64,000 bases of DNA from Bacteroidales bacterium (GCA_016936355.1 JAFGYB010000006.1:16019-80018), one strand, 5' to 3'. Positions 1 through 12,425 are shown, numbered from the stretch's first letter. The notes: generated by a model not told the origin, from the letters alone. Program-made: numbers and translations.

Positions 1-2
1 TT

Positions 3-1481
3 GAGTATAAAACCGATACAGAAGCCCATCACCACGAACAATATTTTTTTCCGGATGAGCTACTGGCCTATCCCTATTCCGATTGTGAAGACCGTGCCGT
101 TTTGTACGCTTACCTGGTCAAAAATCTTCTTCATTTGAATGTGATGGGGCTTGGTTTTCCCGGGCATATGGCTACGGCCGTTCATTTTACCAGGCAACCC
201 GAAGGGGACTTTCTAACCTGGCAGGGAGAAAAGTATGTGGTGGCAGATCCAACCTATACCGGTGCCCCGATTGGCATGCTGATGCCCCAGGTCCAAGGTA
301 CCCGGGCGCAACTGATACCCGTTAACAATGAAATAGTGAAGGCTGACCGATCCACTGCCTTATGGAAACAACTCACCAACAGTGGGTTTTTCCGGGGAGA
401 TTTGTTACAGGATGTACTTTTCGATCAACAAAACAACGCTTACGTATGCGGTTATTTCGTGGGAGAAGCCCAACTGGGAGAAATTCAGTTAAAAGGTTCC
501 AAAGACGTTCGTACAGGCTTTATTGCCAGGATCGATCCTGAAAACAAAACCGTTTGGGCCACCTCCTTATCAGGAACAGGAAACAATACAGCATTTAACC
601 TGGCATTCTCTCCCGACAGTTCCCTATATGTCTACGGAACCATGGAAAAAAACCTTACTGTTGAAAATAATGAAATCCAGGCAGAAAACGCACCGGATGT
701 TTTTCTGGCACGAATCAACCGAAACGGAAAGCTTCAGTGGGTGCAAAAAGCCGGCATCGGGAAACTGGATCACAGCAGTAACTTTATGTTTGCTGCCCGG
801 TTCAACGCATCCGGAGAGAAAACCATGGCCCGGCTGTTCAGCGAATCGGAACACTTCGAACAGTACGGATTAACTACGGAAGCCGATGGCAGCGCCTTGA
901 TCACCGGTTCATTTTATGCTACTACAGGAATGAATACCCACGATTTCGCAAACTACAACACGGGATCTGATTTCAGTCCCGAGACTGCATTGAAAAGCAT
1001 CAACGACACCCTGGTGAAAAGAGACTACGAGCAAACCATTGCCGGTTTGTTTGCCGCCATGCAGCTCATCAAAGCCAATTCGCTGGAGATAAAGGGTATT
1101 CAGGTTCAGGACGTATTTCAGAAACACAACAAGCAATTCATTCAGTATGCCAAGAACTTCTACGACGGATTTGGCCTGATGCGTTTTATGAAAAACAACA
1201 GTGGAATCATCACGATCCGAACCGACGACGGAAAACCATTGTATTTCGATAAGATTAAAATCAACAACGAAGCCCGGATCAAAGTGATCAAATACAAAAG
1301 CGGGAACGTGGAAGTTCAGATCTTTTCGGGGATTGACGTTGGAGTTCCCAACCATTGGTTTGCCATGAATACGATCAAACTGTTTAAGGATTCGGGGGAT
1401 TTACTGTTCGATTTTGGTGAAAACCACATCACCAAGAAACTGAATTTGAAAAAGGAAATTTTAAAGAAAACAACTGACTAA
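3..1481 (+). CDS. Transglutaminase-like (papain-fold) domain protein with SBBP-like beta-propeller repeats; 5' end outside the window
   Basis: The frame is open to the left edge; translation upstream of the listed Met reads EYKTDTEAHHHEQYFFPDELLAYPYSDCEDRAVLYAYLV. The Cys/His/Asp contexts DCEDRA, PGHMATAV and VVADPTY fit the transglutaminase-like triad. The C-terminal half has units such as FIARIDPENKTVWATS, FLARINRNGKLQWVQKAG, LYVYGT and ALITGSF, typical of SBBP-type propeller repeats. Confidence 0.6.
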   Translation, partial: EYKTDTEAHHHEQYFFPDELLAYPYSDCEDRAVLYAYLVKNLLHLNVMGLGFPGHMATAVHFTRQPEGDFLTWQGEKYVVADPTYTGAPIGMLMPQVQGTRAQLIPVNNEIVKADRSTALWKQLTNSGFFRGDLLQDVLFDQQNNAYVCGYFVGEAQLGEIQLKGSKDVRTGFIARIDPENKTVWATSLSGTGNNTAFNLAFSPDSSLYVYGTMEKNLTVENNEIQAENAPDVFLARINRNGKLQWVQKAGIGKLDHSSNFMFAARFNASGEKTMARLFSESEHFEQYGLTTEADGSALITGSFYATTGMNTHDFANYNTGSDFSPETALKSINDTLVKRDYEQTIAGLFAAMQLIKANSLEIKGIQVQDVFQKHNKQFIQYAKNFYDGFGLMRFMKNNSGIITIRTDDGKPLYFDKIKINNEARIKVIKYKSGNVEVQIFSGIDVGVPNHWFAMNTIKLFKDSGDLLFDFGENHITKKLNLKKEILKKTTD

Positions 1482-1502
1482 ATAGAAACCTGGCGTACGG
1501 AT

Positions 1503-3311
1503 ATGATTTTGAGAAGAAATATTGTTTTTGTATTGATGGCTCTGTTGATGTCAATGCAAGTGACTGCTGAGACTACCTCAGAGCACCAAAAACAGGATTC
1601 AAAAGAGTTAAAAGATACACTATCCCTGCATCAGGTATATCAACAGCTTGAGCATGCACAGCAGGATGTGATAATTTCGAATAAGACGATTGCTCCGGGG
1701 AAGAAGGATGGTACATTTCTGAATGATCAGGTTTTTTTCAAGGAATATCATCTGAAAGCACCCAACTCATCCGAAAGGCGGCTGTTTTTCTACGACTGTG
1801 ATTTTGTGATTCCGCCCGATACGCCTTTGTTTCTGGATAACTGGCATTTTAAGAAACTGAACTTTGTCGGATGTACTTTTCAAATGCCCCTTTTCCTGTT
1901 CGGTTGTACTTTCAACGAATCCTATCCCCTGGTACTCGAAAACTGTACTTTTCGAAACCTGTTTTCGATTTCGGGGGAAGGCAACCTTTCAGATTTGGAA
2001 GTGAACGGCTGCACTTTTGAAGGACAGCTTTTGGTAAAAAGTAATGTAAACAACCTAACGTTGAACCATTGCCGGTTTGATGCCGACACCAATTTTTTTA
2101 AATCACTGGACGAAGAAAAAACCCATTACCAGCTTTCAGCAAAAAATATTCAGATTGGCGAAATGGACATGCAGCATTGCCTGTTGCTGAATCATGGGAT
2201 AAGCAACTTGTTTTCCATTGATCTTTCCGGAAGCGAGATTCAGAAAATCAACTGGATGAACAACCAAATGACCGCCTTGAATTTCACGGATGCGGAAGTC
2301 TCCAAATCCATTTTAATTGATTCACTGTCGGTCTCAAAATACATTGGAGTCCAGAACTTTGATTTCCCGGATGCCAACACCAATATCCCATGGAACAACC
2401 TGGAAGGACAAAAGCTGGCTTTATTCCAGACCGGATTGAGCGACCGGATTGTTCCCTATCAGGCCAAAACAAAACAACAACTTTCCAAAACAATTCTCTA
2501 CAACGAGTTGGTCAGCGTGTATAAAAAACTCAACACCCTGTATCAGGACAGAGGGGACTTACCCTCTGCCAACGGCTCCTACATCGAGATTAAGGAACTG
2601 GAAACGGCACACCTTGAATATATCCAGTCGGTGCATCCCAGTTCCACCAACCTGATCAACATCCTGCTGAACAAAGTAATGAAATTCTTCAGTGATTACG
2701 CCACCAATCCCGGAAAGTCGGTGAACCGAGCCTGGCAGTTCCTGTTGCTCTTTACAGTGCTGTACATGTTTACCTTTTCCAAATGGGACGGAATGAATTA
2801 CGGATACTGCGTGCGACAGTTTCAGTTCTTCTTCAACTACATCCAAAGCGACAAAAACATACAGGACGTCTTTGAGGAAGAAAAAGACAAAACCGACAAA
2901 CTGGTCAACAACCTCAAAAAGGATTACCTGAAAAAACAAAAGAAGGTACCCCGTACCATCACCATGGTTGGTGAAGTAATCTATGCCCTTGGACGTGTGC
3001 GTAGTTTTCTAACTCCCAGGCTCATCCGGTTGCTGAATTTTCAGCCCCAGAGCTGGGAAAATCTGAAATCATTTAAAAAGTTTTTCTCGTACCTCATGAT
3101 TCCACTGGTGATGCTCCTCTTCATTGTTTATGTGTTGGTAGTCAAATTCATTACCGGTTTTATCATGAGTCTGAACAATCTAATTGCATTGGGATTTGGC
3201 GTGATGCCCGAAGAAGGTATTGCTATGTATATCAGCATTATCGAAGGAATTATCGGCTGGTTTTTACTGACTATTTTCACGGTAAGTCTGTTCAGTCAGG
3301 TTCTGCAATAA
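1503..3311 (+). CDS. Signal-peptide beta-solenoid (pentapeptide-like) repeat protein with a C-terminal 2-TM ion-channel-like module
   Basis: The N-terminus MILRRNIVFVLMALLMSMQVTA looks like a signal peptide. There are periodic ~20-aa units ending FYDCDF, FVGCTF, LFGCTF, LENCTF, VNGCTF and LNHCRF. The C-terminus has hydrophobic helices (AWQFLLLFTVLYMF, YLMIPLVMLLFIVYVLVV, IIGWFLLTIFTVSLF) with a pore-loop-like ALGFGVMP between the last two. Confidence 0.6.
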   Translation: MILRRNIVFVLMALLMSMQVTAETTSEHQKQDSKELKDTLSLHQVYQQLEHAQQDVIISNKTIAPGKKDGTFLNDQVFFKEYHLKAPNSSERRLFFYDCDFVIPPDTPLFLDNWHFKKLNFVGCTFQMPLFLFGCTFNESYPLVLENCTFRNLFSISGEGNLSDLEVNGCTFEGQLLVKSNVNNLTLNHCRFDADTNFFKSLDEEKTHYQLSAKNIQIGEMDMQHCLLLNHGISNLFSIDLSGSEIQKINWMNNQMTALNFTDAEVSKSILIDSLSVSKYIGVQNFDFPDANTNIPWNNLEGQKLALFQTGLSDRIVPYQAKTKQQLSKTILYNELVSVYKKLNTLYQDRGDLPSANGSYIEIKELETAHLEYIQSVHPSSTNLINILLNKVMKFFSDYATNPGKSVNRAWQFLLLFTVLYMFTFSKWDGMNYGYCVRQFQFFFNYIQSDKNIQDVFEEEKDKTDKLVNNLKKDYLKKQKKVPRTITMVGEVIYALGRVRSFLTPRLIRLLNFQPQSWENLKSFKKFFSYLMIPLVMLLFIVYVLVVKFITGFIMSLNNLIALGFGVMPEEGIAMYISIIEGIIGWFLLTIFTVSLFSQVLQ

Positions 3312-3335
3312 GTACTAATAAGATTAAAGAACACA

Positions 3336-3830
3336 ATGGACACGATCAACAACACAGTTTCAACAGCCTTTCCGACCGATAGTTTTTTGTTCACCGTTCT
3401 CTTTTTACTGGCTCTTTTCTTTCTTCAGAAGTACATCTATCTTGCGGATCGAAAAATTGCACAATTCACAAAAAAAGACGGAACAGAACTTAGAAAACCC
3501 TGGTCTTTTCTGGTTGCCCTACTATTGGGTGCATTTGTGTTTTTTTATAATGTATTTTCCCCAGACGACCTGACTTTCAACATTGCCGAATGGCACATTG
3601 AATGGGTCGTTTTTGCTGTGGGACTGTTTACCCTTACGGGAATAATACGCGAAAGCTTTAAAGACTTCGGACCCAAAGCAGGACTGATTCGATCGGTATT
3701 GTATGTTCTTCTCACAGTACTGTATTTTTATGCCGGCCTGATTTCGGGATATTTAATCGTATCGCTGTTGGCTCTTGCTGTTCTGTTTTATTTCTTAAGG
3801 TATTGGAAAAAATTACTCATCCCCAAATAG
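3336..3830 (+). CDS. Hypothetical polytopic membrane protein (about 4 TM)
   Basis: It lies 24 nt after the upstream gene on the same strand. It has four long hydrophobic stretches and no recognisable catalytic motif. Confidence 0.55.
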   Translation: MDTINNTVSTAFPTDSFLFTVLFLLALFFLQKYIYLADRKIAQFTKKDGTELRKPWSFLVALLLGAFVFFYNVFSPDDLTFNIAEWHIEWVVFAVGLFTLTGIIRESFKDFGPKAGLIRSVLYVLLTVLYFYAGLISGYLIVSLLALAVLFYFLRYWKKLLIPK

Positions 3831-3836
3831 AATGCT

Positions 3837-4679
3837 ATGCTCAACTTCCTCATTTTTATATTTGTATTTGCCATTTCTGCTTTTTTGCTGGCGTTCAGCA
3901 TTCGCTATGGCATGACAGGCGCCAACCGGATGGAAGCCTGGCTCTCAGAGAAGTCAGGACGTAATTTTGAAGGATACGACTGGTATTACAGAATCCCGTT
4001 TTCCATCGGGCTTATTCCGGAATATTTTTTTGCGCTGGTGTTGACCAAAGACAACTATTTCAAAACCAACTGGTGGTCCTTGAAAACGTCTTCATTTATT
4101 TCGGTTTTGTTATTCCTTGCTGTTTTGAAAAGCCGCAGCAGTGTTTCTGCCTATTATTCTCTTACCCTGTTGCAGAATCAGGGATTTGCTGCTTATCTAA
4201 CTTCGGGTGCCTTTGTATGGTTTCTGAATTTTATTACACTCATGTATGTTGCACTCGGCGTACTCCTTATCATGGAAAGCATCAAGGCCGCCGGCTGGTA
4301 TGCCCCGGTAAGATTTCTCTATTACGGCCTGCTCTGTTTGCTGATGGCAAGTCTGACGTTGTCTGTCCTTTCGGGAATTTTGGCCCTTGCGCTTGTCTAT
4401 TTTATTTACAAAATTGTTTCGTTTTTGTTTTTCAAATCATCCAACAGGCGGAAACAGGAAGAGGAAGAAACAGCAGGCACCATCTTGAGTAAAGGATTGG
4501 GGGAATTCAAGGAGGAACTGAGTGAATGGGAAAGTGAACGCAAAACCATTAGCAGTATTAGGAAACCTAAGAATGTCAAACCTCACCATAAACCGGTTAT
4601 TCGAAGAAAAAAACCAGTTAAACCTATTATTGAAAAACCGGAACCGGAAGATGAGATACCCCGATTATTTCCCGATTAA
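3837..4679 (+). CDS. Hypothetical polytopic membrane protein with a Lys/Glu/Pro-rich C-terminal tail
   Basis: It lies 6 nt after the previous gene. It has multiple hydrophobic helices followed by a charged tail (SNRRKQEEEETAG...KPKNVKPHHKPVIRRKKPVKPIIEKPEPEDE). Confidence 0.55.
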   Translation: MLNFLIFIFVFAISAFLLAFSIRYGMTGANRMEAWLSEKSGRNFEGYDWYYRIPFSIGLIPEYFFALVLTKDNYFKTNWWSLKTSSFISVLLFLAVLKSRSSVSAYYSLTLLQNQGFAAYLTSGAFVWFLNFITLMYVALGVLLIMESIKAAGWYAPVRFLYYGLLCLLMASLTLSVLSGILALALVYFIYKIVSFLFFKSSNRRKQEEEETAGTILSKGLGEFKEELSEWESERKTISSIRKPKNVKPHHKPVIRRKKPVKPIIEKPEPEDEIPRLFPD

Positions 4680-4690
4680 CTGACCATTTC

Positions 4691-5767
4691 ATGACCAAAA
4701 ATAAGATAGACCAACAGTTGGAACGCTTGCGGGAAATGAAATCCGATCCGAAATTCCCTACTCATTTCGAACGTCCAGCCTCAGCAGATAAAATAAGAAA
4801 TTTTGAGGCAAAGTACCACATCAAACTGCCCGATTCCTATAAAAAATTCCTCATGCAGTACAATGGTGGAATGTTTACTTATCCGCAACTGAGCAAATAC
4901 ATCCAGACTCAAAATGACTATGAACTGCACAAGCACAATTCCGTGTACCTGATGAGTATTGAGGAAATAGAAATCAAATACGATGATCTCATGTTTTCGC
5001 GCTGGAAAGTCAGAAAAGAGACGGCTGATCCCTATCCTGTTATCCCGTTCTGCACAACCATCAACAGCGAATTACTTGTCTTTATCCATGGAGAAAAAAG
5101 CGGGAAAGAATCACCGGTATTTGATGCGTTCCACGAAGAACCCCCTTCCACCTGGGGAATTATTGCAAATAATTTTGCCAATTTCCTGGAAATTTATCTC
5201 AATGCCCGGGGCTTTCCCAGAACCATCGGAAATGAAACAGCCGGAGTCGCCGGCAATTATTTCGACAACCCCCTACAAAAAAAAGAAATCACAGAAACGT
5301 CAAAAGAGATTCTGTCTCGAACGGAACAACAAATCGCAGCGAATCCGAAAGATGATTTCGCCTATTACGAACGCTCCCAGGTTTTTTTTGACAGGGGCGA
5401 TCTGACCGAAGCCTGGGAAATGATTGCCCGGGCCATCGAAATAGACAATAAGAATGCCTTTTACTACTTCATCAGTGGCGAAATCTTACGTGAGGGAGAC
5501 CTCATCAGAGCCTCACTCATCGCTTTTGACAAAGCAGTGAATCTGGAGCCAAAAGATACACTTTATCTATGCTGCCGTGCCGGTGCTTTCTATCAGCTCC
5601 GAAAAAATGAGAAAGCGCTGGAAGACTGCAACCGGGCAGTGGAAATAGATCCGGAACACCTGCTGGCCTATATGTTGCGTAATGAAGTATATCTGGCGCT
5701 GGGGGAAAAGGAAAAAGCTGCTGCCGATCAGGAGAAAATCGATGAACTGAATTCCAAAAAGAGCTAG
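4691..5767 (+). CDS. SMI1/KNR4 (SUKH-1) domain protein fused to C-terminal TPR repeats
   Basis: The N-terminal segment FEAKYHIKLPDSYKKFLMQYNGGMF is the hallmark SMI1/KNR4 (SUKH) motif. The C-terminal third has TPR-like repeats (AWEMIARAIEIDNKNAFYYF, ALEDCNRAVEIDPEHLLAY). Confidence 0.7.
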   Translation: MTKNKIDQQLERLREMKSDPKFPTHFERPASADKIRNFEAKYHIKLPDSYKKFLMQYNGGMFTYPQLSKYIQTQNDYELHKHNSVYLMSIEEIEIKYDDLMFSRWKVRKETADPYPVIPFCTTINSELLVFIHGEKSGKESPVFDAFHEEPPSTWGIIANNFANFLEIYLNARGFPRTIGNETAGVAGNYFDNPLQKKEITETSKEILSRTEQQIAANPKDDFAYYERSQVFFDRGDLTEAWEMIARAIEIDNKNAFYYFISGEILREGDLIRASLIAFDKAVNLEPKDTLYLCCRAGAFYQLRKNEKALEDCNRAVEIDPEHLLAYMLRNEVYLALGEKEKAAADQEKIDELNSKKS

Positions 5768-5770
5768 CCC

Positions 5771-8491
5771 TTATTCCATATGAAATCCCAGTGCAGGCCT
5801 GGATATTTTAGCCTGTGGTACAAACTCATTCACATCCGACAAAACAATTGTTCCAATCATTTCTGTGGTTCGTTCCTGCTTAGGGGTGTCTGCCATTCTG
5901 AGCTCATGATTGCGGATCACTTTTTCTACAATTTTTCGCATGGAACGCGCATTCCCGAAGAAAATATCTCTGTTTTTGTACAAATAGGCAATATATGTTT
6001 TCAGATGTTCTTCTGCATCCTTATTTAGTACCAGATTTTCCCTGTTGAAACTCGATTTCACAATGGTCCACAATTCGCTTTCCGTGAAATCATTGAAATG
6101 ATATTTATGATCAAAACGGGAATCCAGCCCGGGATTGGATTCCAGGAAATGCTGCATATTCTGGGTGTAACCCGCTACAATCACTCCGAAATTACGTCGC
6201 TGATCTTCCATCTCTTTGACCAGGGCCGCCACCGCTTTTTTTCCGAAATCATTGTTTTGCCCATCCGTCAGTGAATAGGCTTCATCAATAAACAATATTC
6301 CCCCCATGGCACTGGAAATTAAATCCTTGGTCTTCAGAGCCGTCTGTCCCACAAAACCTGCCACCATCGAACTTCCGTCGGCATCCACCAAATGACCCCG
6401 TTCAAGCAGTCCGAGTGCTTTGTATATTTTTCCCAGAATCCGGGCCACCGTTGTTTTTCCCGTTCCCGGATTTCCGGTAAATACACTGTGCATGGAAAAA
6501 GCCTTTAGTACGTCGCGGTTAATTTCCTTGTAATACCGCGTCAGACGCACCAGTTCGCTCACTTCCTGCTTGATATTTTTCAGTCCGGTCAGATTATTCA
6601 GTTCATTCAGCGAAGCCTTCAACAAATCTTCATCAATGCTCAGTTTCAGTTGTTTTTCAATGGCCGATTCGGCAATATCCTCAATATCTTCAGGCTGAAT
6701 CTCAGAAAGTATCTTTTTGGTCAAATGTTCCGAATCGTATTGTTTCACTACGCGAATCCCAAGGTTCATTTTGGCCTCATCAATCAGAGAGGTAGCAAAC
6801 CGGGCATTACCAAAGGTCCTGTCTCTTTTACGGTATGCATCGGTAACCAGTTTCAACAATCTTTCTTCCGCCTGAATGCTGAGTGTTACATCTTTTTTCT
6901 TTGCCGCATATCGGGCAATATCCAGCAATTCATCAGGTGTGTAATCTTCAAAATGAAAATGATGTTTGAACCGGGATTGCAGTCCGGGATTGGAGCCGAT
7001 CAGCTTTTCCATTTCCTTGGGATAGCCGGCTACCATAATGGCAATATCGCCGGGACCATCACTCATTTCGGTGATCAGCGTGGCAACGGCTTCTGGACCA
7101 AAATCACCCGAAGCCCCTTCTTTAAACAGCATGTATGCCTCGTCAATAAATAAGATGCCTCCCCGGGCTTTCTCAATGGCTTCTTTGGTATCTTTTCCCG
7201 TTTGCCGCACATAACCCGAAACCAGGTTATTGGCATCCACCACATGGACATGTCCCTTGGTCAGCAGTCCCATGGCATGAAAAATCTGCCCCAGCAGTTT
7301 TACCACTGTGGTTTTTCCCGTACCCGGATTTCCAGTAAATATGCTATGCAAACTGATTTTTTCCTCTTCCTGAAATCCCTGCGCTTCACGGTATTGCAGG
7401 AAACTCACATAGTCCACATATTCCCTGACTTTTTGTTTGATGTTATTTAAACCGATCAATCCATCCAGTTCGGACATGATTTCACTCAACGGACGGTCGT
7501 CAATTACAATTTCATCTTCCGGCTGACTTCCCGTATCCTGACCTTCGTCGGTCTTGTCTTCATCCGGTTTATCCGCTTCCTTTTTATCCAACATACCCTG
7601 CGAAACATGAGAAACATCATACCATTTACTGACTTCTTCATTCAGCAGCGCTTCATAATCGCTGATGCGTTCCACTTCCTTGTCACCAACAGAAAAGGGG
7701 ATCACTCCAACGGTTGTATCCATAAAAATGACTTCCAACCGATAATTATCCTGAATCCAGGTCCCTTTGGTTTCCGAACCCCAACCGGCAGTGACGGTAA
7801 ACGATTCTCCCGGTCCGATGGAAGGAGTAATATTGAGCATGGTATCGGCGACACCAACGGTTTGCCCGGTATCATCCACGAAACGGAAAAAGACTTCGCA
7901 AAGCCATTCTTCTTCAATCTGGTTGAGGAAGCGAAGTTCCCCCATGATATACCTTGTTTCTTTCGCATCGAAAGTCTTCAGGTATTTCCTTGACTTTTCA
8001 GGCAAATCATCTCCCGGAGCTTCATAAGTACGCAGACTGATGGCCTCAAAATAAGGGTTCTCTTCCTCAGTCACCCGGTTGTAATCTTCTATATAGAAAT
8101 CAGCGGTTCCCACTTCATCGCCATCAATACTGGCAATCCAGCGGTAGTGCCCCGGCTTCCAGAACTTGGCATATTCATCTTCGCCCCAGCCAAAGCTGTA
8201 GGTGATGATGTTGTCCTCCTTCGATACGGGGATTTCCTCCTCTTTGTTGCAGATTTCAACAGTTTTTTCGCGATTTACCTGATTGACAGCCCGGATACGG
8301 ATTTTAGCAGTCCAGTCCTCTTCATCGAAGAGCTTATTGTAAAAGGCCAGTTCGGCTCCCAGATAATTGATCTCGAACCGATCAAACACTTTCCTGAATT
8401 TCCGCTTGCTGCCCATGGCACGATCCCAGGCAAACGACTGCAGGCTTTTGAATTTGTAATTGGGGCCTCCTTTTGATTTTCCGAAAATCAT
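5771..8491 (-). CDS. Tandem AAA+ ATPase of the CbbX/SpoVK type with an internally duplicated N-terminal domain
   Basis: There are two Walker A motifs (FTGNPGTGKTTV twice), two Walker B motifs (GGILFIDEAY twice) and two GNAR motifs (FGNARFATSLIDEA, FGNARSMRKIVEKV), as in SpoVK/CbbX/EccA-type modules. An acidic linker (DKPDEDKTDEGQDTGSQPEDE) follows two similar ~110-aa N-terminal units. Confidence 0.8.
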   Translation of the reverse strand: MIFGKSKGGPNYKFKSLQSFAWDRAMGSKRKFRKVFDRFEINYLGAELAFYNKLFDEEDWTAKIRIRAVNQVNREKTVEICNKEEEIPVSKEDNIITYSFGWGEDEYAKFWKPGHYRWIASIDGDEVGTADFYIEDYNRVTEEENPYFEAISLRTYEAPGDDLPEKSRKYLKTFDAKETRYIMGELRFLNQIEEEWLCEVFFRFVDDTGQTVGVADTMLNITPSIGPGESFTVTAGWGSETKGTWIQDNYRLEVIFMDTTVGVIPFSVGDKEVERISDYEALLNEEVSKWYDVSHVSQGMLDKKEADKPDEDKTDEGQDTGSQPEDEIVIDDRPLSEIMSELDGLIGLNNIKQKVREYVDYVSFLQYREAQGFQEEEKISLHSIFTGNPGTGKTTVVKLLGQIFHAMGLLTKGHVHVVDANNLVSGYVRQTGKDTKEAIEKARGGILFIDEAYMLFKEGASGDFGPEAVATLITEMSDGPGDIAIMVAGYPKEMEKLIGSNPGLQSRFKHHFHFEDYTPDELLDIARYAAKKKDVTLSIQAEERLLKLVTDAYRKRDRTFGNARFATSLIDEAKMNLGIRVVKQYDSEHLTKKILSEIQPEDIEDIAESAIEKQLKLSIDEDLLKASLNELNNLTGLKNIKQEVSELVRLTRYYKEINRDVLKAFSMHSVFTGNPGTGKTTVARILGKIYKALGLLERGHLVDADGSSMVAGFVGQTALKTKDLISSAMGGILFIDEAYSLTDGQNNDFGKKAVAALVKEMEDQRRNFGVIVAGYTQNMQHFLESNPGLDSRFDHKYHFNDFTESELWTIVKSSFNRENLVLNKDAEEHLKTYIAYLYKNRDIFFGNARSMRKIVEKVIRNHELRMADTPKQERTTEMIGTIVLSDVNEFVPQAKISRPALGFHME

Positions 8492-8596: not shown

Positions 8597-9598
8597 TTAA
8601 AAAACAAACTTAAAAACGATCTGTTCGTGGTATTCCTCTCCCGGATGCAGCACCGCGTTAGGAAAGTTACTTTTGTTGGGGGCATCAGGAAAGTTTTGCG
8701 GTTCAAGGGCAATTCCCCCATAAGTCTGCAAGGGGTATCCTCCTTTTCCATTTTCCGTTCCGTCAAAATGCATACCGGCATAAACCTGAATGCCGGGTTG
8801 GGTAGTGTACACCTCCACCTTCCTGCCTAATTCGGGAACCGACAGAACAGCGGCTTTCACCAGGTCGTGTTCTTTTCTGCGGATCACCCAGTTGTGGTCG
8901 AGTCCACCCCGCAACAATATATCCGGATCGTCGCTTGCCACCACATCCATAATTTTCACAGGCTCACGCAAATCCATACTTGTTCCCGAAACCGGTTTCA
9001 ACTCTCCGGTAGGGATCGAAAATTTATTCAACGGAGTATAGTGATCCGCAAAAATCTGAAGAAAATGGTTTTGTACATTTCCTCCTCCCGGTCCGTTCAG
9101 ATTGAAATAAGGATGAGAGGTCAGGTTCACCACTGTGGTTTTGTCTGTATATGCCTTGAAATCAATTAAAAATTCATTGTTTTCATTCAGCGCATACAAC
9201 ACCTCCACCTGTAAGTTTCCGGGGTAGTTTTCGTCTCCGTCCTCACTCAACAAGGAAAGCTTATAAGCTGAAGTATAACCCGGAACCAAAGCCGGACTCA
9301 CCGCCCAGTCCTTGGTGTAGAAACCCTGAGCTCCGCCGTGCAGATGATTGGGTTCCTGATTTCGGTTCAATTGAATTTCGTGTCCGTCCAGCGTCAAAAT
9401 TCCGCCAGCAATCCGGTTGGCATATCGCCCCACCAAAGCCCCGAAAAACGGATCACCGTGCAGGAATTCCTGCACGGTGTCGTATCCGACAAAAACATCT
9501 GTCTTTCCATGTTCCGACGGAATCAGTGCAGAACACAATTTCCCGCCAAGGGACAGAAATGAAATCTCCATCCCGTTCTTATTAATTAAATGATGCAT
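8597..9598 (-). CDS. galM: Aldose 1-epimerase (galactose mutarotase)
   Basis: Motifs VGRYANRI, PNHLHGG, TSHPYFNL and GIALEPQNFPDAPN are characteristic of aldose 1-epimerases. Confidence 0.85.
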   Translation of the reverse strand: MHHLINKNGMEISFLSLGGKLCSALIPSEHGKTDVFVGYDTVQEFLHGDPFFGALVGRYANRIAGGILTLDGHEIQLNRNQEPNHLHGGAQGFYTKDWAVSPALVPGYTSAYKLSLLSEDGDENYPGNLQVEVLYALNENNEFLIDFKAYTDKTTVVNLTSHPYFNLNGPGGGNVQNHFLQIFADHYTPLNKFSIPTGELKPVSGTSMDLREPVKIMDVVASDDPDILLRGGLDHNWVIRRKEHDLVKAAVLSVPELGRKVEVYTTQPGIQVYAGMHFDGTENGKGGYPLQTYGGIALEPQNFPDAPNKSNFPNAVLHPGEEYHEQIVFKFVF

Positions 9599-9612
9599 GC
9601 TTTTTCTTGCCC

Positions 9613-11241
9613 CTACCAGAATACCGTATACAACACTACCAAAATGGTCATCAGTATATACGCACTGATGTTAAACCTGCGTTCCGTGATAAACGTTTCT
9701 CTGTACAGAGGGATGGCTTTGGGATTGGCATCTCCTTCAGCCGTGGTCAGAGATACACCCACAATAATCACCACGGTGATGAGGAGGGTATAGAGCATCT
9801 GATCAAGGAATGGCATGTCAATGGGCAGGAATTTCAATGCCAGAGCCACTGGTATGGAACTCAACACCCCGACAATAGCCCCTTTAACACTGGTTTTCTT
9901 CCAGAATAATCCCATGAGGAAGACAGCCAGAATTCCCGGGCTGACCAAACCGGTGTATTCCTGAATATACTGGAACATCTGTGGAATGGAACCCAGTGAC
10001 TTGGCAACGGAGGCTGCAATAATCAGGGCAACCAAAACAGACAAGCGACCTACCGATACCAATTGTTTGTTGGTGGCATTCTTATTGAAATACGGTTTGT
10101 AAATATCCATCGTAAAAATAGTGGAAGTTGAATTCAGCATGGATGCCAGTGAAGACACAATAGCGGCAGAAAGTGCAGCCACAACCAGTCCTTTCAATCC
10201 AACGGGGATAAATTTGGCGATCAGCCAGGGATAGGCTTTATCGTAAGTAACGGAACCATTGAGTCCTTCAAAAACGCCGCGTGCACCGTCTATGTTTTGT
10301 TGAAACATCACAAAAGCAATGATACCGGGAATCACGACGAGCAAAGGAATAATCAGCTTCAGGAAACCGGCAAAAGCCACCCCGCGCTGGGCTTCTTTCA
10401 ACGATTTGGCTGCCAGAGCACGCTGAATAATGTACTGGTTAAAACCCCAGTAGTACAGGTTGGCTACCCACATCCCGCCAATCAGCACCCCAATACCCGG
10501 CAGGTTTTTAAATTCGGGATTGGTGCTTTTCAGGATCATTTGAAATTTATCGGGAGCTTCATGATAAATGTAGGTAAAACCATGCAGTATGGAACCGTCT
10601 GGGCTGATATGAACCAAGGCAATAATGGTGGTGATCAATCCGCCGGTAACCAAAAGAACCACCTGGATTACATCGGTCCAGGCCACAGCCGAAAGACCGC
10701 CCCACAACGAATAAGCCGCAGCAAACAAGGCCAGACCAATAATGAAATACATGATGGTATCTCCGTTTCCGGTTCCAAGGATGGTATCCAAAGCCTGGGC
10801 ACCCAGATACAACACGGAAGTCAGGTTCACAAACAGAAACAATGCAATCCAGAAAACAGCCAGGATGGTTTTCAAAGTGGTGTTGAATCTTTTTTCAATG
10901 AATTCGGGAATGGTATACAGACCCTGTTTGATAAAAATCGGGAGGAAGTATTTTCCCACAATGATCAGGGTAATGGCTGCCATCCATTCGTAGGAAGCAA
11001 TGGCCAGCCCCACAGCAAAGCCCGATCCCGACATGCCAATGAATTGCTCGGCCGAAATATTAGCCGCAATCAGTGATGCGCCAATGGCCCACCAGGGCAA
11101 CGTCTTTCCGGCAAGGAAGTAATCTTCGGCGGTTTTTTCCTGCCCTTTTTTGGTGCGTGAAACGTACAATCCCACGGCAATGATCAACACTGCGTAGGCA
11201 GCAAAGATCAAATAATCTATAAAATCAAAATGACTGTTCAT
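9613..11241 (-). CDS. Sodium:solute symporter family sugar transporter (SGLT-like)
   Basis: It is a ~542-aa polytopic protein with typical SSS motifs (AEDYFLAGK..PWWAIGASLIAANISAEQFIGMSG, AVAWTDVIQ). It sits between galK and galM. Confidence 0.8.
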   Translation of the reverse strand: MNSHFDFIDYLIFAAYAVLIIAVGLYVSRTKKGQEKTAEDYFLAGKTLPWWAIGASLIAANISAEQFIGMSGSGFAVGLAIASYEWMAAITLIIVGKYFLPIFIKQGLYTIPEFIEKRFNTTLKTILAVFWIALFLFVNLTSVLYLGAQALDTILGTGNGDTIMYFIIGLALFAAAYSLWGGLSAVAWTDVIQVVLLVTGGLITTIIALVHISPDGSILHGFTYIYHEAPDKFQMILKSTNPEFKNLPGIGVLIGGMWVANLYYWGFNQYIIQRALAAKSLKEAQRGVAFAGFLKLIIPLLVVIPGIIAFVMFQQNIDGARGVFEGLNGSVTYDKAYPWLIAKFIPVGLKGLVVAALSAAIVSSLASMLNSTSTIFTMDIYKPYFNKNATNKQLVSVGRLSVLVALIIAASVAKSLGSIPQMFQYIQEYTGLVSPGILAVFLMGLFWKKTSVKGAIVGVLSSIPVALALKFLPIDMPFLDQMLYTLLITVVIIVGVSLTTAEGDANPKAIPLYRETFITERRFNISAYILMTILVVLYTVFW

Positions 11242-11264
11242 GGTTTTTAAGATATAATTGACAA

Positions 11265-12425
11265 CTATTTTTCATTGATCTGAACCGGGTGCGTTCCCCG
11301 CTCAATTTTTACTTTAATAATTTCAGGCTGACCTCCGTCAGGAGTCTGATAACTTTCCAACACTTTCTGCTCAAAATCAGGTACCGATTTTTTGGCAATC
11401 AGGTTGATGGTGCAGCCTCCGAAACCACCGCCCATCATCCGGGAACCCAGCACCCCTTCCACACTTCGGGCAAGGTCCACCAATTGATCCAGCTCATCAC
11501 AACTCACTTCGTATTTATCTCGTAGCCCTTCATGAGAACCGTACATTTCCTGTCCGAAAGCCTTCATATCGTCTTTCTCCAGTGCAGCGCAGGCACGCTC
11601 CAAACGCAGGTTTTCCTCCACCACATAGGAACAACGGTTATACACCACCGGATCAAACTCCTGTTCAAAATTCTGAATTTGTTCCAAATCAACATCCCTC
11701 AGGGAATTAATTTCCGGAAAATGTTTTTGCAACAGGGCAACCCCGGTTTCACATTCCTGACGTCTTTTATTGTATTCGGAAGAAGCCAGCGAATGCTTTA
11801 CTCCGGTGTTTACCAGGATAAGCTCATAATTATCCATATGGAACGGATACAACCGGTATTCCAAACTGCGGCAATCCAGTTTGATTACCTGCTGATGCTC
11901 ACCGTGCATCACCGCAAACTGATCCATAATGCCGCACTGAACTCCGGCATATTCGTGTTCGGCTTTTTGCGAAAATTTTACCAGATCGAGGGTTTCATAC
12001 CCGTAACCTTCCATTTGATTGATGGCAAAAGCCAGTCCGGTTTCCACTGCCGCCGATGAAGACATCCCGGCACCCATGGGCAGATTACCGCCCAGCACAC
12101 AGTCAAACCCCTGTACTTTTTTCCCTGATTTTTCAAACTGAGCAATCACCCCCAGCAAATAATTCACCCACCGCGTTTTGCTTATCGCAATATCATGCAC
12201 GTCCCGCACGCACACATCTTCCAGATCATAACTGTAAAAACGGTATTTATTCAGTTCGTTGGGCTTGCAGGCGAAATATACCCCCAGATCTACTGCCGCT
12301 GGCAATACAAATCCATCATTATAATCGGTGTGTTCTCCGATCAGATTGATCCTGCCCGGAGACTTGAACAACAGCGGATCCTTCCCAAAATGTTCTTCAA
12401 ATGCTTGTTTAATTTTTTCTATCAT
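11265..12425 (-). CDS. galK: Galactokinase
   Basis: It carries the galactokinase signature GRINLIGEHTDYNDGFVLP and the GHMP kinase motif PMGAGMSSSAA. Its ATG overlaps the upstream gene's stop in an ATGA. Confidence 0.9.
   Translation of the reverse strand: MIEKIKQAFEEHFGKDPLLFKSPGRINLIGEHTDYNDGFVLPAAVDLGVYFACKPNELNKYRFYSYDLEDVCVRDVHDIAISKTRWVNYLLGVIAQFEKSGKKVQGFDCVLGGNLPMGAGMSSSAAVETGLAFAINQMEGYGYETLDLVKFSQKAEHEYAGVQCGIMDQFAVMHGEHQQVIKLDCRSLEYRLYPFHMDNYELILVNTGVKHSLASSEYNKRRQECETGVALLQKHFPEINSLRDVDLEQIQNFEQEFDPVVYNRCSYVVEENLRLERACAALEKDDMKAFGQEMYGSHEGLRDKYEVSCDELDQLVDLARSVEGVLGSRMMGGGFGGCTINLIAKKSVPDFEQKVLESYQTPDGGQPEIIKVKIERGTHPVQINEK

Follow-up and report, generated by a model that had tools for sequence, protein, structure and literature searches.

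A conserved two-module cell-envelope gene cluster of Bacteroidales encodes a solenoid protein with a pore-loop channel-like module

The closest described counterparts of the proteins discussed here come from several different systems: the pores with two transmembrane (2-TM) helices of the NaK, KcsA and Kir channels, which Pfam groups as Ion_trans_2; HalA, the DNA-gated effector channel of the Hailong anti-phage system (PDB 9nyi), which carries a cytoplasmic sensor crown; LapG, a periplasmic protease that acts on LapA; CsgG, the curli secretion pore; and the AAA+ ATPases CbbX, SpoVK and EccA, the last of which belongs to type VII secretion. Proteins that resemble these one by one are encoded together at the start of a 64,000-nucleotide (nt) stretch of DNA from a Bacteroidales bacterium (GCA_016936355.1 JAFGYB010000006.1:16019-80018), which we refer to as the window. 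An initial annotation of this stretch had described positions 1-5767 as a tightly packed five-gene operon of unknown function, here g1 to g5, and had suggested an envelope-associated sensing or conflict module. We found that the conserved unit is a cell-envelope cluster of 9-11 genes made of two separable modules, and that g1-g5 form one end of it. Tentatively, and with somewhat less than even confidence, we read this cluster as encoding a channel complex that spans the envelope, is particular to this lineage and is served on the cytoplasmic side by an adaptor and an ATPase; its mechanism we infer.

The extent of the cluster in this genome emerges when the window is extended upstream. A 14-kb contig, L001, overlaps the window, whose position 1 corresponds to L001 7662 (by exact look-up of the g2 protein), and it supplies the 5' end of g1, which the initial annotation had placed outside the window: the full gene spans L001 6524-9142 and encodes 872 amino acids (aa) with a signal peptide. 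By the called genes, a 211-aa secreted protein, g0, is encoded 28 nt 5' of g1, and two further genes upstream of the window, d1 and d2, are transcribed divergently; with these three the conserved cluster starts about 5 kb upstream of the window. In this genome it comprises nine genes, in the order d2 <- d1 <> g0 -> g1 -> g2 -> g3 -> g4 -> g5 <- AAA+, the last encoding an ATPase convergent to g5. Module A consists of d2, d1, g0, g1 and g2 and module B of g3, g4, g5 and the AAA+ gene, and either can include a further gene, F5. This gene encodes a cytoplasmic protein of about 244 aa with a zinc ribbon (CxxC...SDG...CxxC); in most relatives it lies between d1 and g0 (29 of 38 related loci), and in loci that hold module B only it lies 5' of g3.

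Comparison across genomes carries this conclusion. An alignment of 26 g2 homologues, scanned over one genome per GTDB species, gave 47 loci, which we analysed by tblastn and by clustering open reading frames (ORFs) into families, counting presence where the contig has room; a second set of 52 metagenome loci came from a scan with a g4 alignment. All 47 are from metagenome-assembled genomes (MAGs) labelled Bacteroidales, Lentimicrobiaceae, Marinilabiliales, Prolixibacteraceae or 'Bacteroidetes', with two labelled Chlorobiota. Where there was room, g1 is present in 40 of 41 loci, g0 in 38 of 39, d1 in 27 of 31 and d2 in 27 of 30, and the module B genes in 25/43 (g3), 23/38 (g4) and 19/32 (g5). 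A failure to co-occur outside this genome had been named at the outset as evidence against the operon; g1-g5 co-occur across related MAGs, and the convergent AAA+ gene joins them in 13 of the 26 loci with room, and is also found in module-B-only loci, among them L049, L051, L092, L093 and L096. This genome's flanking genes, which served as an internal control for background synteny, occur in 0 of the 47 related loci (aldose-epimerase-like, sodium:solute symporter (SSS) and galactokinase-like genes downstream; S51 peptidase and DUF4251 genes upstream), whereas cluster genes were found in 13-47 loci.

Gene order is kept among relatives and all members of the cluster diverge in parallel. Spacing is short throughout, with median gaps across genomes of 18 nt (g0-g1), 6.5 nt (g1-g2), 27 nt (g2-g3), 5.5 nt (g3-g4) and 8 nt (g4-g5), and many -4/-1 start/stop overlaps occur at the junctions in relatives. 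In the window, the five same-strand ORFs and their gaps of 21, 24, 6 and 11 nt were reproduced (Table 1), and all of these junctions are too short to hold a terminator. With such small gaps, and with the order and short spacing recurring in relatives, transcription of g1-g5 as a single unit, as first proposed, is likely. Window positions 1-8491 may make up the right two thirds of a cell-envelope cluster that is inherited vertically and confined to one lineage, being found in Bacteroidales-, Lentimicrobiaceae- and Marinilabiliales-type MAGs, a view that we hold as possible rather than probable.

The same loci also show where the five genes come apart. Because modules A and B each occur alone, g1-g5 straddle a module boundary, and the idea of a self-contained five-gene unit does not survive: the unit is too small, since the cluster extends upstream, and it splits between g2 and g3. 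Module A stands without module B in nine loci (L023, L027, L030-L032, L036, L038, L039 and L044), which form the g2 clade that diverges most; here g3-g5 and the AAA+ gene are absent, and the space between F5 and d1 is taken by genes for a 657-aa ATPase of the HerA/VirB4/CedD kind and for an MltC-like lytic transglycosylase (E 9e-51). No locus has both this pair and module B, and neither HerA nor MltC is found in this genome's cluster or in most loci; a HerA-type ATPase in place of module B in a sister clade suggests that the requirement for an ATPase is interchangeable. Module B without module A, found for the most divergent g4 members, reads F5 <> g3-g4-g5 <- AAA+ without g0, g1, g2, d1 or d2, next to V-ATPase, glutamine synthetase (GlnA) or topoisomerase IV genes. 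Among the metagenome g4 loci with at least 2.6 kb of upstream sequence (21 of 52), g2 is present in 14 and absent from 7.

Single members of module A have relatives elsewhere as well. A g1 homologue (875 aa, 36% identity) stands alone on a 240-kb metagenome contig (L058 10001-12628), with no g0, g2, d1 or d2, so the g1 family (844 homologues, those listed being about 870 aa long) is broader than the cluster. One distant g2-family member sits within a purine/urate catabolism operon (L053/L054; xanthine dehydrogenase, allantoicase, OHCU decarboxylase and HIU hydrolase) and another (L057) beside unrelated genes. In a third clade (L022, L026 and L028), g1 and g2 are separated by a gene for a 304-aa secreted protein; further downstream, these loci encode a protein with a GWxTD domain and two proteins, of 294 and 344 aa, which by eye read as acyltransferase-like and glycosyltransferase-like.

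The channel part of our reading stems from g2, which had been called a signal-peptide beta-solenoid protein anchored by a channel-like 2-TM module. Structure and family searches bear this out: the AlphaFold2 (AF2) model (pLDDT 77.4) has two long C-terminal transmembrane (TM) helices, and Ion_trans_2 was matched by 17 of 26 family segments (best E 1.2e-7), with a precomputed hit on one distant member. The family is large, with 680 representatives at 50% identity, 504 of them below E 1e-30 in a full-library hidden Markov model search. Besides a Pfam Pentapeptide_3 match (E 2e-5), g2 gave Foldseek matches to pentapeptide-repeat proteins and HalA and local matches to the Kir6, NaK and GluA pores (root-mean-square deviation 2-3 Å over ~50 residues), and the family profile aligned with the NaK channel in the PDB over the pore helix and filter (E 0.015). 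By the positive-inside rule and the AF2 model, the succession of signal peptide, TM1, K/R-rich loop, TM2, P-loop and TM3 gives a P-loop that enters the membrane from the outside, with the ends of both helices beside it in the cytoplasm; the signal peptide and the positive-inside rule place the solenoid in the periplasm and the pore module in the canonical K-channel topology.

The filter itself differs between branches of the g2 family. C-terminal segments of distant members read ...SLNTFSTLGFGDIP..., with the filter S/T-T-L-G-F/Y-G-D/E, and the window g2 and the subfamily linked to g0 and g1 read ...SLNNLIALGFGVMP... or ...SFVVIGFGxLP.... In this subfamily G-F-G is kept and both the Thr of the filter and the Asp next to it have been lost (V/L/A-I/L-G-F-G-x), which makes strict K+ selectivity unlikely. 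The window g2, with A-L-G-F-G-V, departs from the canonical T-[VIL]-G-[YF]-G-[DE].

For g1, the proposal had been a transglutaminase-like Cys-His-Asp core followed by SBBP-type repeats, and both elements stand. All 39 sequences compared keep Cys408, His435 and Asp462, and in the AF2 model built on 39 homologues (pLDDT 82.5, pTM 0.81) the Cys starts helix 408-423, the His lies in strand 435-440 and the Asp falls just after strand 456-461. The isolated core region found no match in the PDB by sequence profile. The blades match the CylK propeller by profile in four stretches (E 4e-21) and by Foldseek (E 1.5e-4); an NCBIfam SBBP lipoprotein model also matched (E 1e-5), and PF06739 is precomputed on three homologues. 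With only about four of them, these are SBBP-type blades and not necessarily a closed propeller.

All five module-A proteins of this genome (d2, d1, g0, g1 and g2) carry signal peptides, which upholds the envelope association first suggested. The 419-aa exported protein d1 combines a CsgG-family match (36.5 bits against a Pfam gathering score of 20.8) with tetratricopeptide repeats (TPRs) and a C-terminal SH3 domain; searched by sequence against the PDB, it returned TPR matches only and no CsgG structure. No family match was found for d2, an exported protein of 600 aa. Pfam and PDB profile searches with a g0 alignment (23 sequences) gave nothing but a DUF6488 match below threshold, confined to the N-terminal ~58 residues, which comprise the signal peptide and a K-rich stretch. 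LPP20/FlgP-like lipoproteins were considered for g0 and d2 and dropped, as profile searches gave no such support.

Module B begins with g3, a poorly conserved protein (27% mean identity) of about four TM helices, followed by g4, with about six hydrophobic segments and a cytoplasmic tail of ~80 residues; as first noted, neither has a recognisable motif, and neither matched Pfam, NCBIfam or PADLOC. In alignment the g4 tail shows an acidic stretch, an amphipathic FK.EL..WE segment and a K/R/P-rich linker. Homologues of g4 fall into 94 clusters, nearly all ~280 aa long, and in ~89 of 93 homologues, module-B-only loci included, a short motif (Table 1) lies at the C-terminus or at most two residues from it. 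This peptide could be a docking site for g5, the TPR protein encoded next to it. The description of g5 as a cytoplasmic SUKH-TPR fusion is confirmed by its SMI1_KNR4 match (E 2.7e-17) and its TPRs, which are nearest to the C-terminal-peptide-binding TPRs of TOM70, Hip, STI1 and CHIP; judged by its sequence, g5 is plausibly a peptide-binding TPR protein. The AAA+ protein has an N-terminal domain of ~330 aa without a family match, followed by two CbbX/SpoVK/EccA-type modules, both with intact Walker A (GNPGTGKT) and Walker B (IDEA) motifs. It is closest to CbbX (E 2e-48) and EccA1 (E 8e-43) in the PDB, and NCBIfam spore_V_K scored 472 bits (cut-off 423) when summed over the two modules, with CbbX and EccA just below their equivalog cut-offs.

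Some relatives elaborate on module B. Two loci (L042 11732-12649 and L043 4943-5848) encode a second g3 paralogue of ~300 aa, with an N-terminal signal peptide and an extracytoplasmic extension of ~130 residues before the 4-TM core. In L013, L015, L021 and L048, the gene for a 596-aa protein with a SAM domain and TPR_12 separates g4 from g5.

As a channel complex, module A would form an assembly across the envelope, and its inner-membrane channel would be a tetramer of g2. The g2 solenoid could couple the channel to periplasmic g0 and g1 and to d1 and d2, which would be associated with the outer membrane or peptidoglycan, and ion flux might be controlled by the state of the envelope or by g1 acting on the solenoid, through catalysed cleavage or cross-linking or through binding or tethering. 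Module B would then be an accessory at the cytoplasmic face, where g3 and g4 would sit with the channel, the C-terminal peptide of g4 would dock the SUKH-TPR adaptor g5, and g5 would bring in the tandem AAA+ remodelling ATPase, by analogy with EccA, which holds both parts in cis. A bolder version sees an undescribed envelope-spanning signalling machine, with a tetrameric pore-loop channel mechanically or proteolytically coupled to the outer envelope via the solenoid, the transglutaminase-fold/propeller protein and CsgG-like anchors, with the SUKH-TPR protein reading the g4 peptide and the tandem AAA+ protein at the cytoplasmic face, and with a HerA-type ATPase instead in sister clades; we consider this decidedly improbable.

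Several observations weigh against a channel complex. The window g2 on its own gives no Ion_trans_2 hit, and its degenerate filter might mean that it does not conduct ions. The Foldseek matches of g1 to transglutaminase-like cysteine proteases (3kd4, 3isr and LapG 4fgp; prob 0.69-0.93) give moderate support for the fold, with poor E-values of 0.07-0.18, which we attribute to the multidomain query, and Pfam Transglut_core was matched weakly, below threshold, by 5 of 17 members (best E 0.026). The CsgG match of d1 spans ~50 residues (profile positions 50-99 of 210), and a lipobox Cys after its signal peptide was looked for and is absent. F5, common to both modules elsewhere, is missing at this genome's locus: there is no copy in the 64-kb window or in L001, including the divergent intergenic region L001 5482-5860. 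An Hsp70/90-type carboxylate clamp in the g5 TPRs was rejected, as CHIP N65 and K95 align by eye to Cys and Leu. Finally, the coupling steps are all guilt by association, and because g1-like genes, g2-like genes and module B each occur alone, co-transcription need not mean one complex.

The alternative that fares best is a trans-envelope machine for secretion or surface assembly, in which d1, with d2, would be the outer-membrane conduit, the MltC-like enzyme would open the peptidoglycan, the HerA/VirB4-like or AAA+ protein would supply energy, and g2 would serve as the inner-membrane platform. The CsgG match of d1 above the gathering score, with its TPRs and SH3 domain, fits such a machine, but d1 has neither a sequence match to CsgG structures nor a lipobox. 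Likewise, the MltC-like and HerA/CedD/VirB4-like genes inserted in nine loci would suit it well, although both are absent from this genome's cluster and from most loci. All module-A proteins are exported, and g1, resembling LapG and other transglutaminase-like proteases, could be a periplasmic processing protease or a cross-linking transglutaminase acting on an exported substrate, as LapG does on LapA; however, the cluster holds no conserved candidate gene for that substrate. At its C-terminus g2 clearly has the pore-loop module of an ion channel, which is not known as a protein conduit. We consider secretion unlikely, if worth keeping in mind.

Modules A and B, and perhaps g1 and g2 too, could also act separately and simply share a promoter, so that there would be no five-gene system. 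That each part is found alone elsewhere, and that one clade keeps module A without module B, is what such an operon fusion would predict, but modules A and B are kept together in at least 20 species-level genomes at 31-60% identity, with both flanks fully replaced. The short g2-g3 junction (median 27 nt), the association of F5 with both modules and the substitution of HerA/MltC for module B at the same cluster likewise argue for a link between the modules, and we judge a mere fusion fairly improbable.

The conflict part of the original suggestion, with g5 as an immunity protein, g2 as a HalA-like abortive-infection channel and g1 as a toxin-processing protease in an anti-phage or polymorphic toxin/immunity system, is very unlikely: it could draw on the SUKH domain of g5, the weak likeness of g2 to HalA and a generic similarity of the AAA+ protein to IetA (E 1e-14), but g1-g5, g0, d1 and d2 match no PADLOC-DB model beyond generic AAA/HerA similarity (g1-g4, g0, d1 and d2 gave no hits and g5 merely E 2e-4 to a candidate family), ~100 loci show no toxin, Rhs/YD, nuclease, nucleotidyltransferase or mobile-element neighbour, the g4-g5-AAA order is fixed amid parallel divergence and housekeeping surroundings (V-ATPase, GlnA, topoisomerase IV and galactose genes), and the g2 solenoid lies in the periplasm behind a signal peptide, unlike the cytoplasmic crown of HalA.

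Scans for transcription signals did not bear on these questions. Promoter-like matches to a sigma-70 consensus were at chance level (16 versus 15.1±4.2 in shuffles), and an intrinsic terminator scan found no terminator-like hairpins inside the g1-g5 junctions; given the chance-level results, and because Bacteroidota promoters fall outside the consensus used, both scans are uninformative. About 38 nt 5' of g0, a by-eye reading found a 7/8 match to the Bacteroidetes -7 motif (GAACTTTG versus TAnnTTTG). At the other end, the g5 stop (TAG, + strand) and the AAA+ stop (TAA, - strand) are separated by 3 nt (window 5765-5773), so the two opposing transcripts must either run into each other or end within one very compact region that serves both. 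Beyond the AAA+ gene, window 8597-12425 (- strand) encodes, by eye, an aldose 1-epimerase-like protein, an SSS transporter and a galactokinase with a GRINLIGEHTDY motif.

Table 1. Features of the cluster within the window (nucleotide positions count from the first letter of the window; g1 residues follow full-length numbering)
Feature	Residues	Nucleotides	Strand	Remarks
g1 ORF, 3' part		3..1481	+	493 codons; frame 3; left end open
g1 layout				signal peptide, long helix, alpha/beta N-domain, transglutaminase/papain-like core, SBBP blades, helical region, beta-sandwich C-terminus
g1 transglutaminase/papain-like core		1..332	+	from triad and fold matches
g1 triad Cys	408	84-86	+	DCEDR
g1 triad His	435	165-167	+	GHMATA
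g1 triad Asp	462	246-248	+	ADPT
g1 SBBP-type beta-propeller blades		384..932	+	about 4; ~170 residues after the core
g2 ORF		1503..3311	+	602 aa
g2 signal peptide	1-22		+	
g2 periplasmic beta-solenoid	~55-282	1665-2348	+	followed by a helical region
g2 TM1	~403-422		+	followed by a K/R-rich cytoplasmic helical loop
g2 2-TM pore-loop channel module	523-602	3069-3308	+	
g2 selectivity-filter position	562-566	3186-3200	+	A-L-G-F-G; from alignments
g3 ORF		3336..3830	+	164 aa
g4 ORF		3837..4679	+	280 aa
g4 extreme C-terminal motif		4653..4676	+	E-I-P-R-L-F-P-D; family D-[IV]-P-[RK]-hydrophobic-[HY]-P-[DNE]
g5 ORF		4691..5767	+	358 aa
g5 SUKH domain (SMI1_KNR4)	29-167	4775-5191	+	Pfam E 2.7e-17; SUKH_6 E 4e-12; SUKH_5
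g5 TPR array	~205-355	5303-5755	+	Pfam TPR families
Convergent AAA+ gene		5771..8491	-	906 aa

If the proposed coupling is true, g2 would be the first example, among Gram-negative bacteria, of a pore of the K-channel type that proteins anchored in the envelope gate from the periplasmic side, and a function would follow for large orphan families (g1, the solenoid-channel protein, g3, g4 and F5) that are widespread in uncultured anaerobic Bacteroidales. Whatever the mechanism, the unit to study becomes the two-module cluster of 9-11 genes rather than five genes, and candidate contacts can be proposed between the g4 tail and the g5 TPRs and between the g2 solenoid and g0/g1.

As the initial annotation held, no characterised system has this composition: neither NCBIfam, PADLOC nor the literature records the combination. 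The Lipocone paper describes a Bacteroidetes operon with 'TM-linked pentapeptide repeats' and glycosyl hydrolases (PMC12419801). We considered g3 and g4 as Lipocone/Min-Wnt domains and set this aside, as the cluster is without glycosyl hydrolases and nothing ties g3 or g4 to that superfamily. The components belong to recognisable superfamilies or are orphans, and the likeness to known systems is at the level of components only. Thus the last ~80 residues of g2 resemble the NaK, KcsA and Kir pores in having an outer helix, a pore helix, a G-F-G filter and an inner helix; to such 2-TM pores g2 adds a signal peptide, a periplasmic solenoid of ~230 residues, a helical domain, an extra TM segment and a cytoplasmic helical loop, and when linked to g0 and g1 it lacks the filter Thr and the next Asp. 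HalA, the best PDB profile hit of g2, is a weak one (E 0.019; Foldseek prob 0.57 over 500 columns, TM-score 0.23-0.36) and shares with it a repeat-rich soluble domain joined to a TM pore of the tetrameric-channel type; the g2 solenoid, however, is exported and is not a cytoplasmic sensor crown, and the cluster has no HalB nucleotidyltransferase partner and lies in a housekeeping context, not in a defence island.

Among bacterial transglutaminase-like cysteine proteases, g1 is comparable to LapG/BTLCP (4fgp), 3isr and BDI_1141 (3kd4), with a Cys at a helix N-terminus and His and Asp on the following strands, and like LapG it is periplasmic. It differs in that its core lies within an 872-aa multidomain protein with SBBP blades and has no significant Pfam match, its catalysis being predicted, and LapD/LapA-type partners are absent from the cluster. 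The resemblance of d1 to the curli pore lies in its CsgG match above the gathering score; the match is partial, there is no lipobox, TPRs and an SH3 domain are added, and no CsgA/B/E/F genes accompany it. SUKH domains are typical of immunity proteins, and residues 29-167 of g5 match SMI1_KNR4, SUKH_6 and SUKH_5, but in g5 the domain is joined to TPRs, no toxin gene lies beside it, and one copy is conserved together with g4 and the AAA+ gene. An adaptor seems a better description of g5 than an immunity protein. Both AAA+ modules belong to the subfamily of EccA, CbbX and SpoVK, although the cluster lacks a type VII secretion, Rubisco or sporulation context, and here the modules are in tandem behind ~330 unmatched N-terminal residues. 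EccA joins TPRs and a CbbX-type AAA+ module in one chain, whereas in this cluster the TPRs are carried by a separate, SUKH-fused protein, g5, encoded beside the AAA+ gene.

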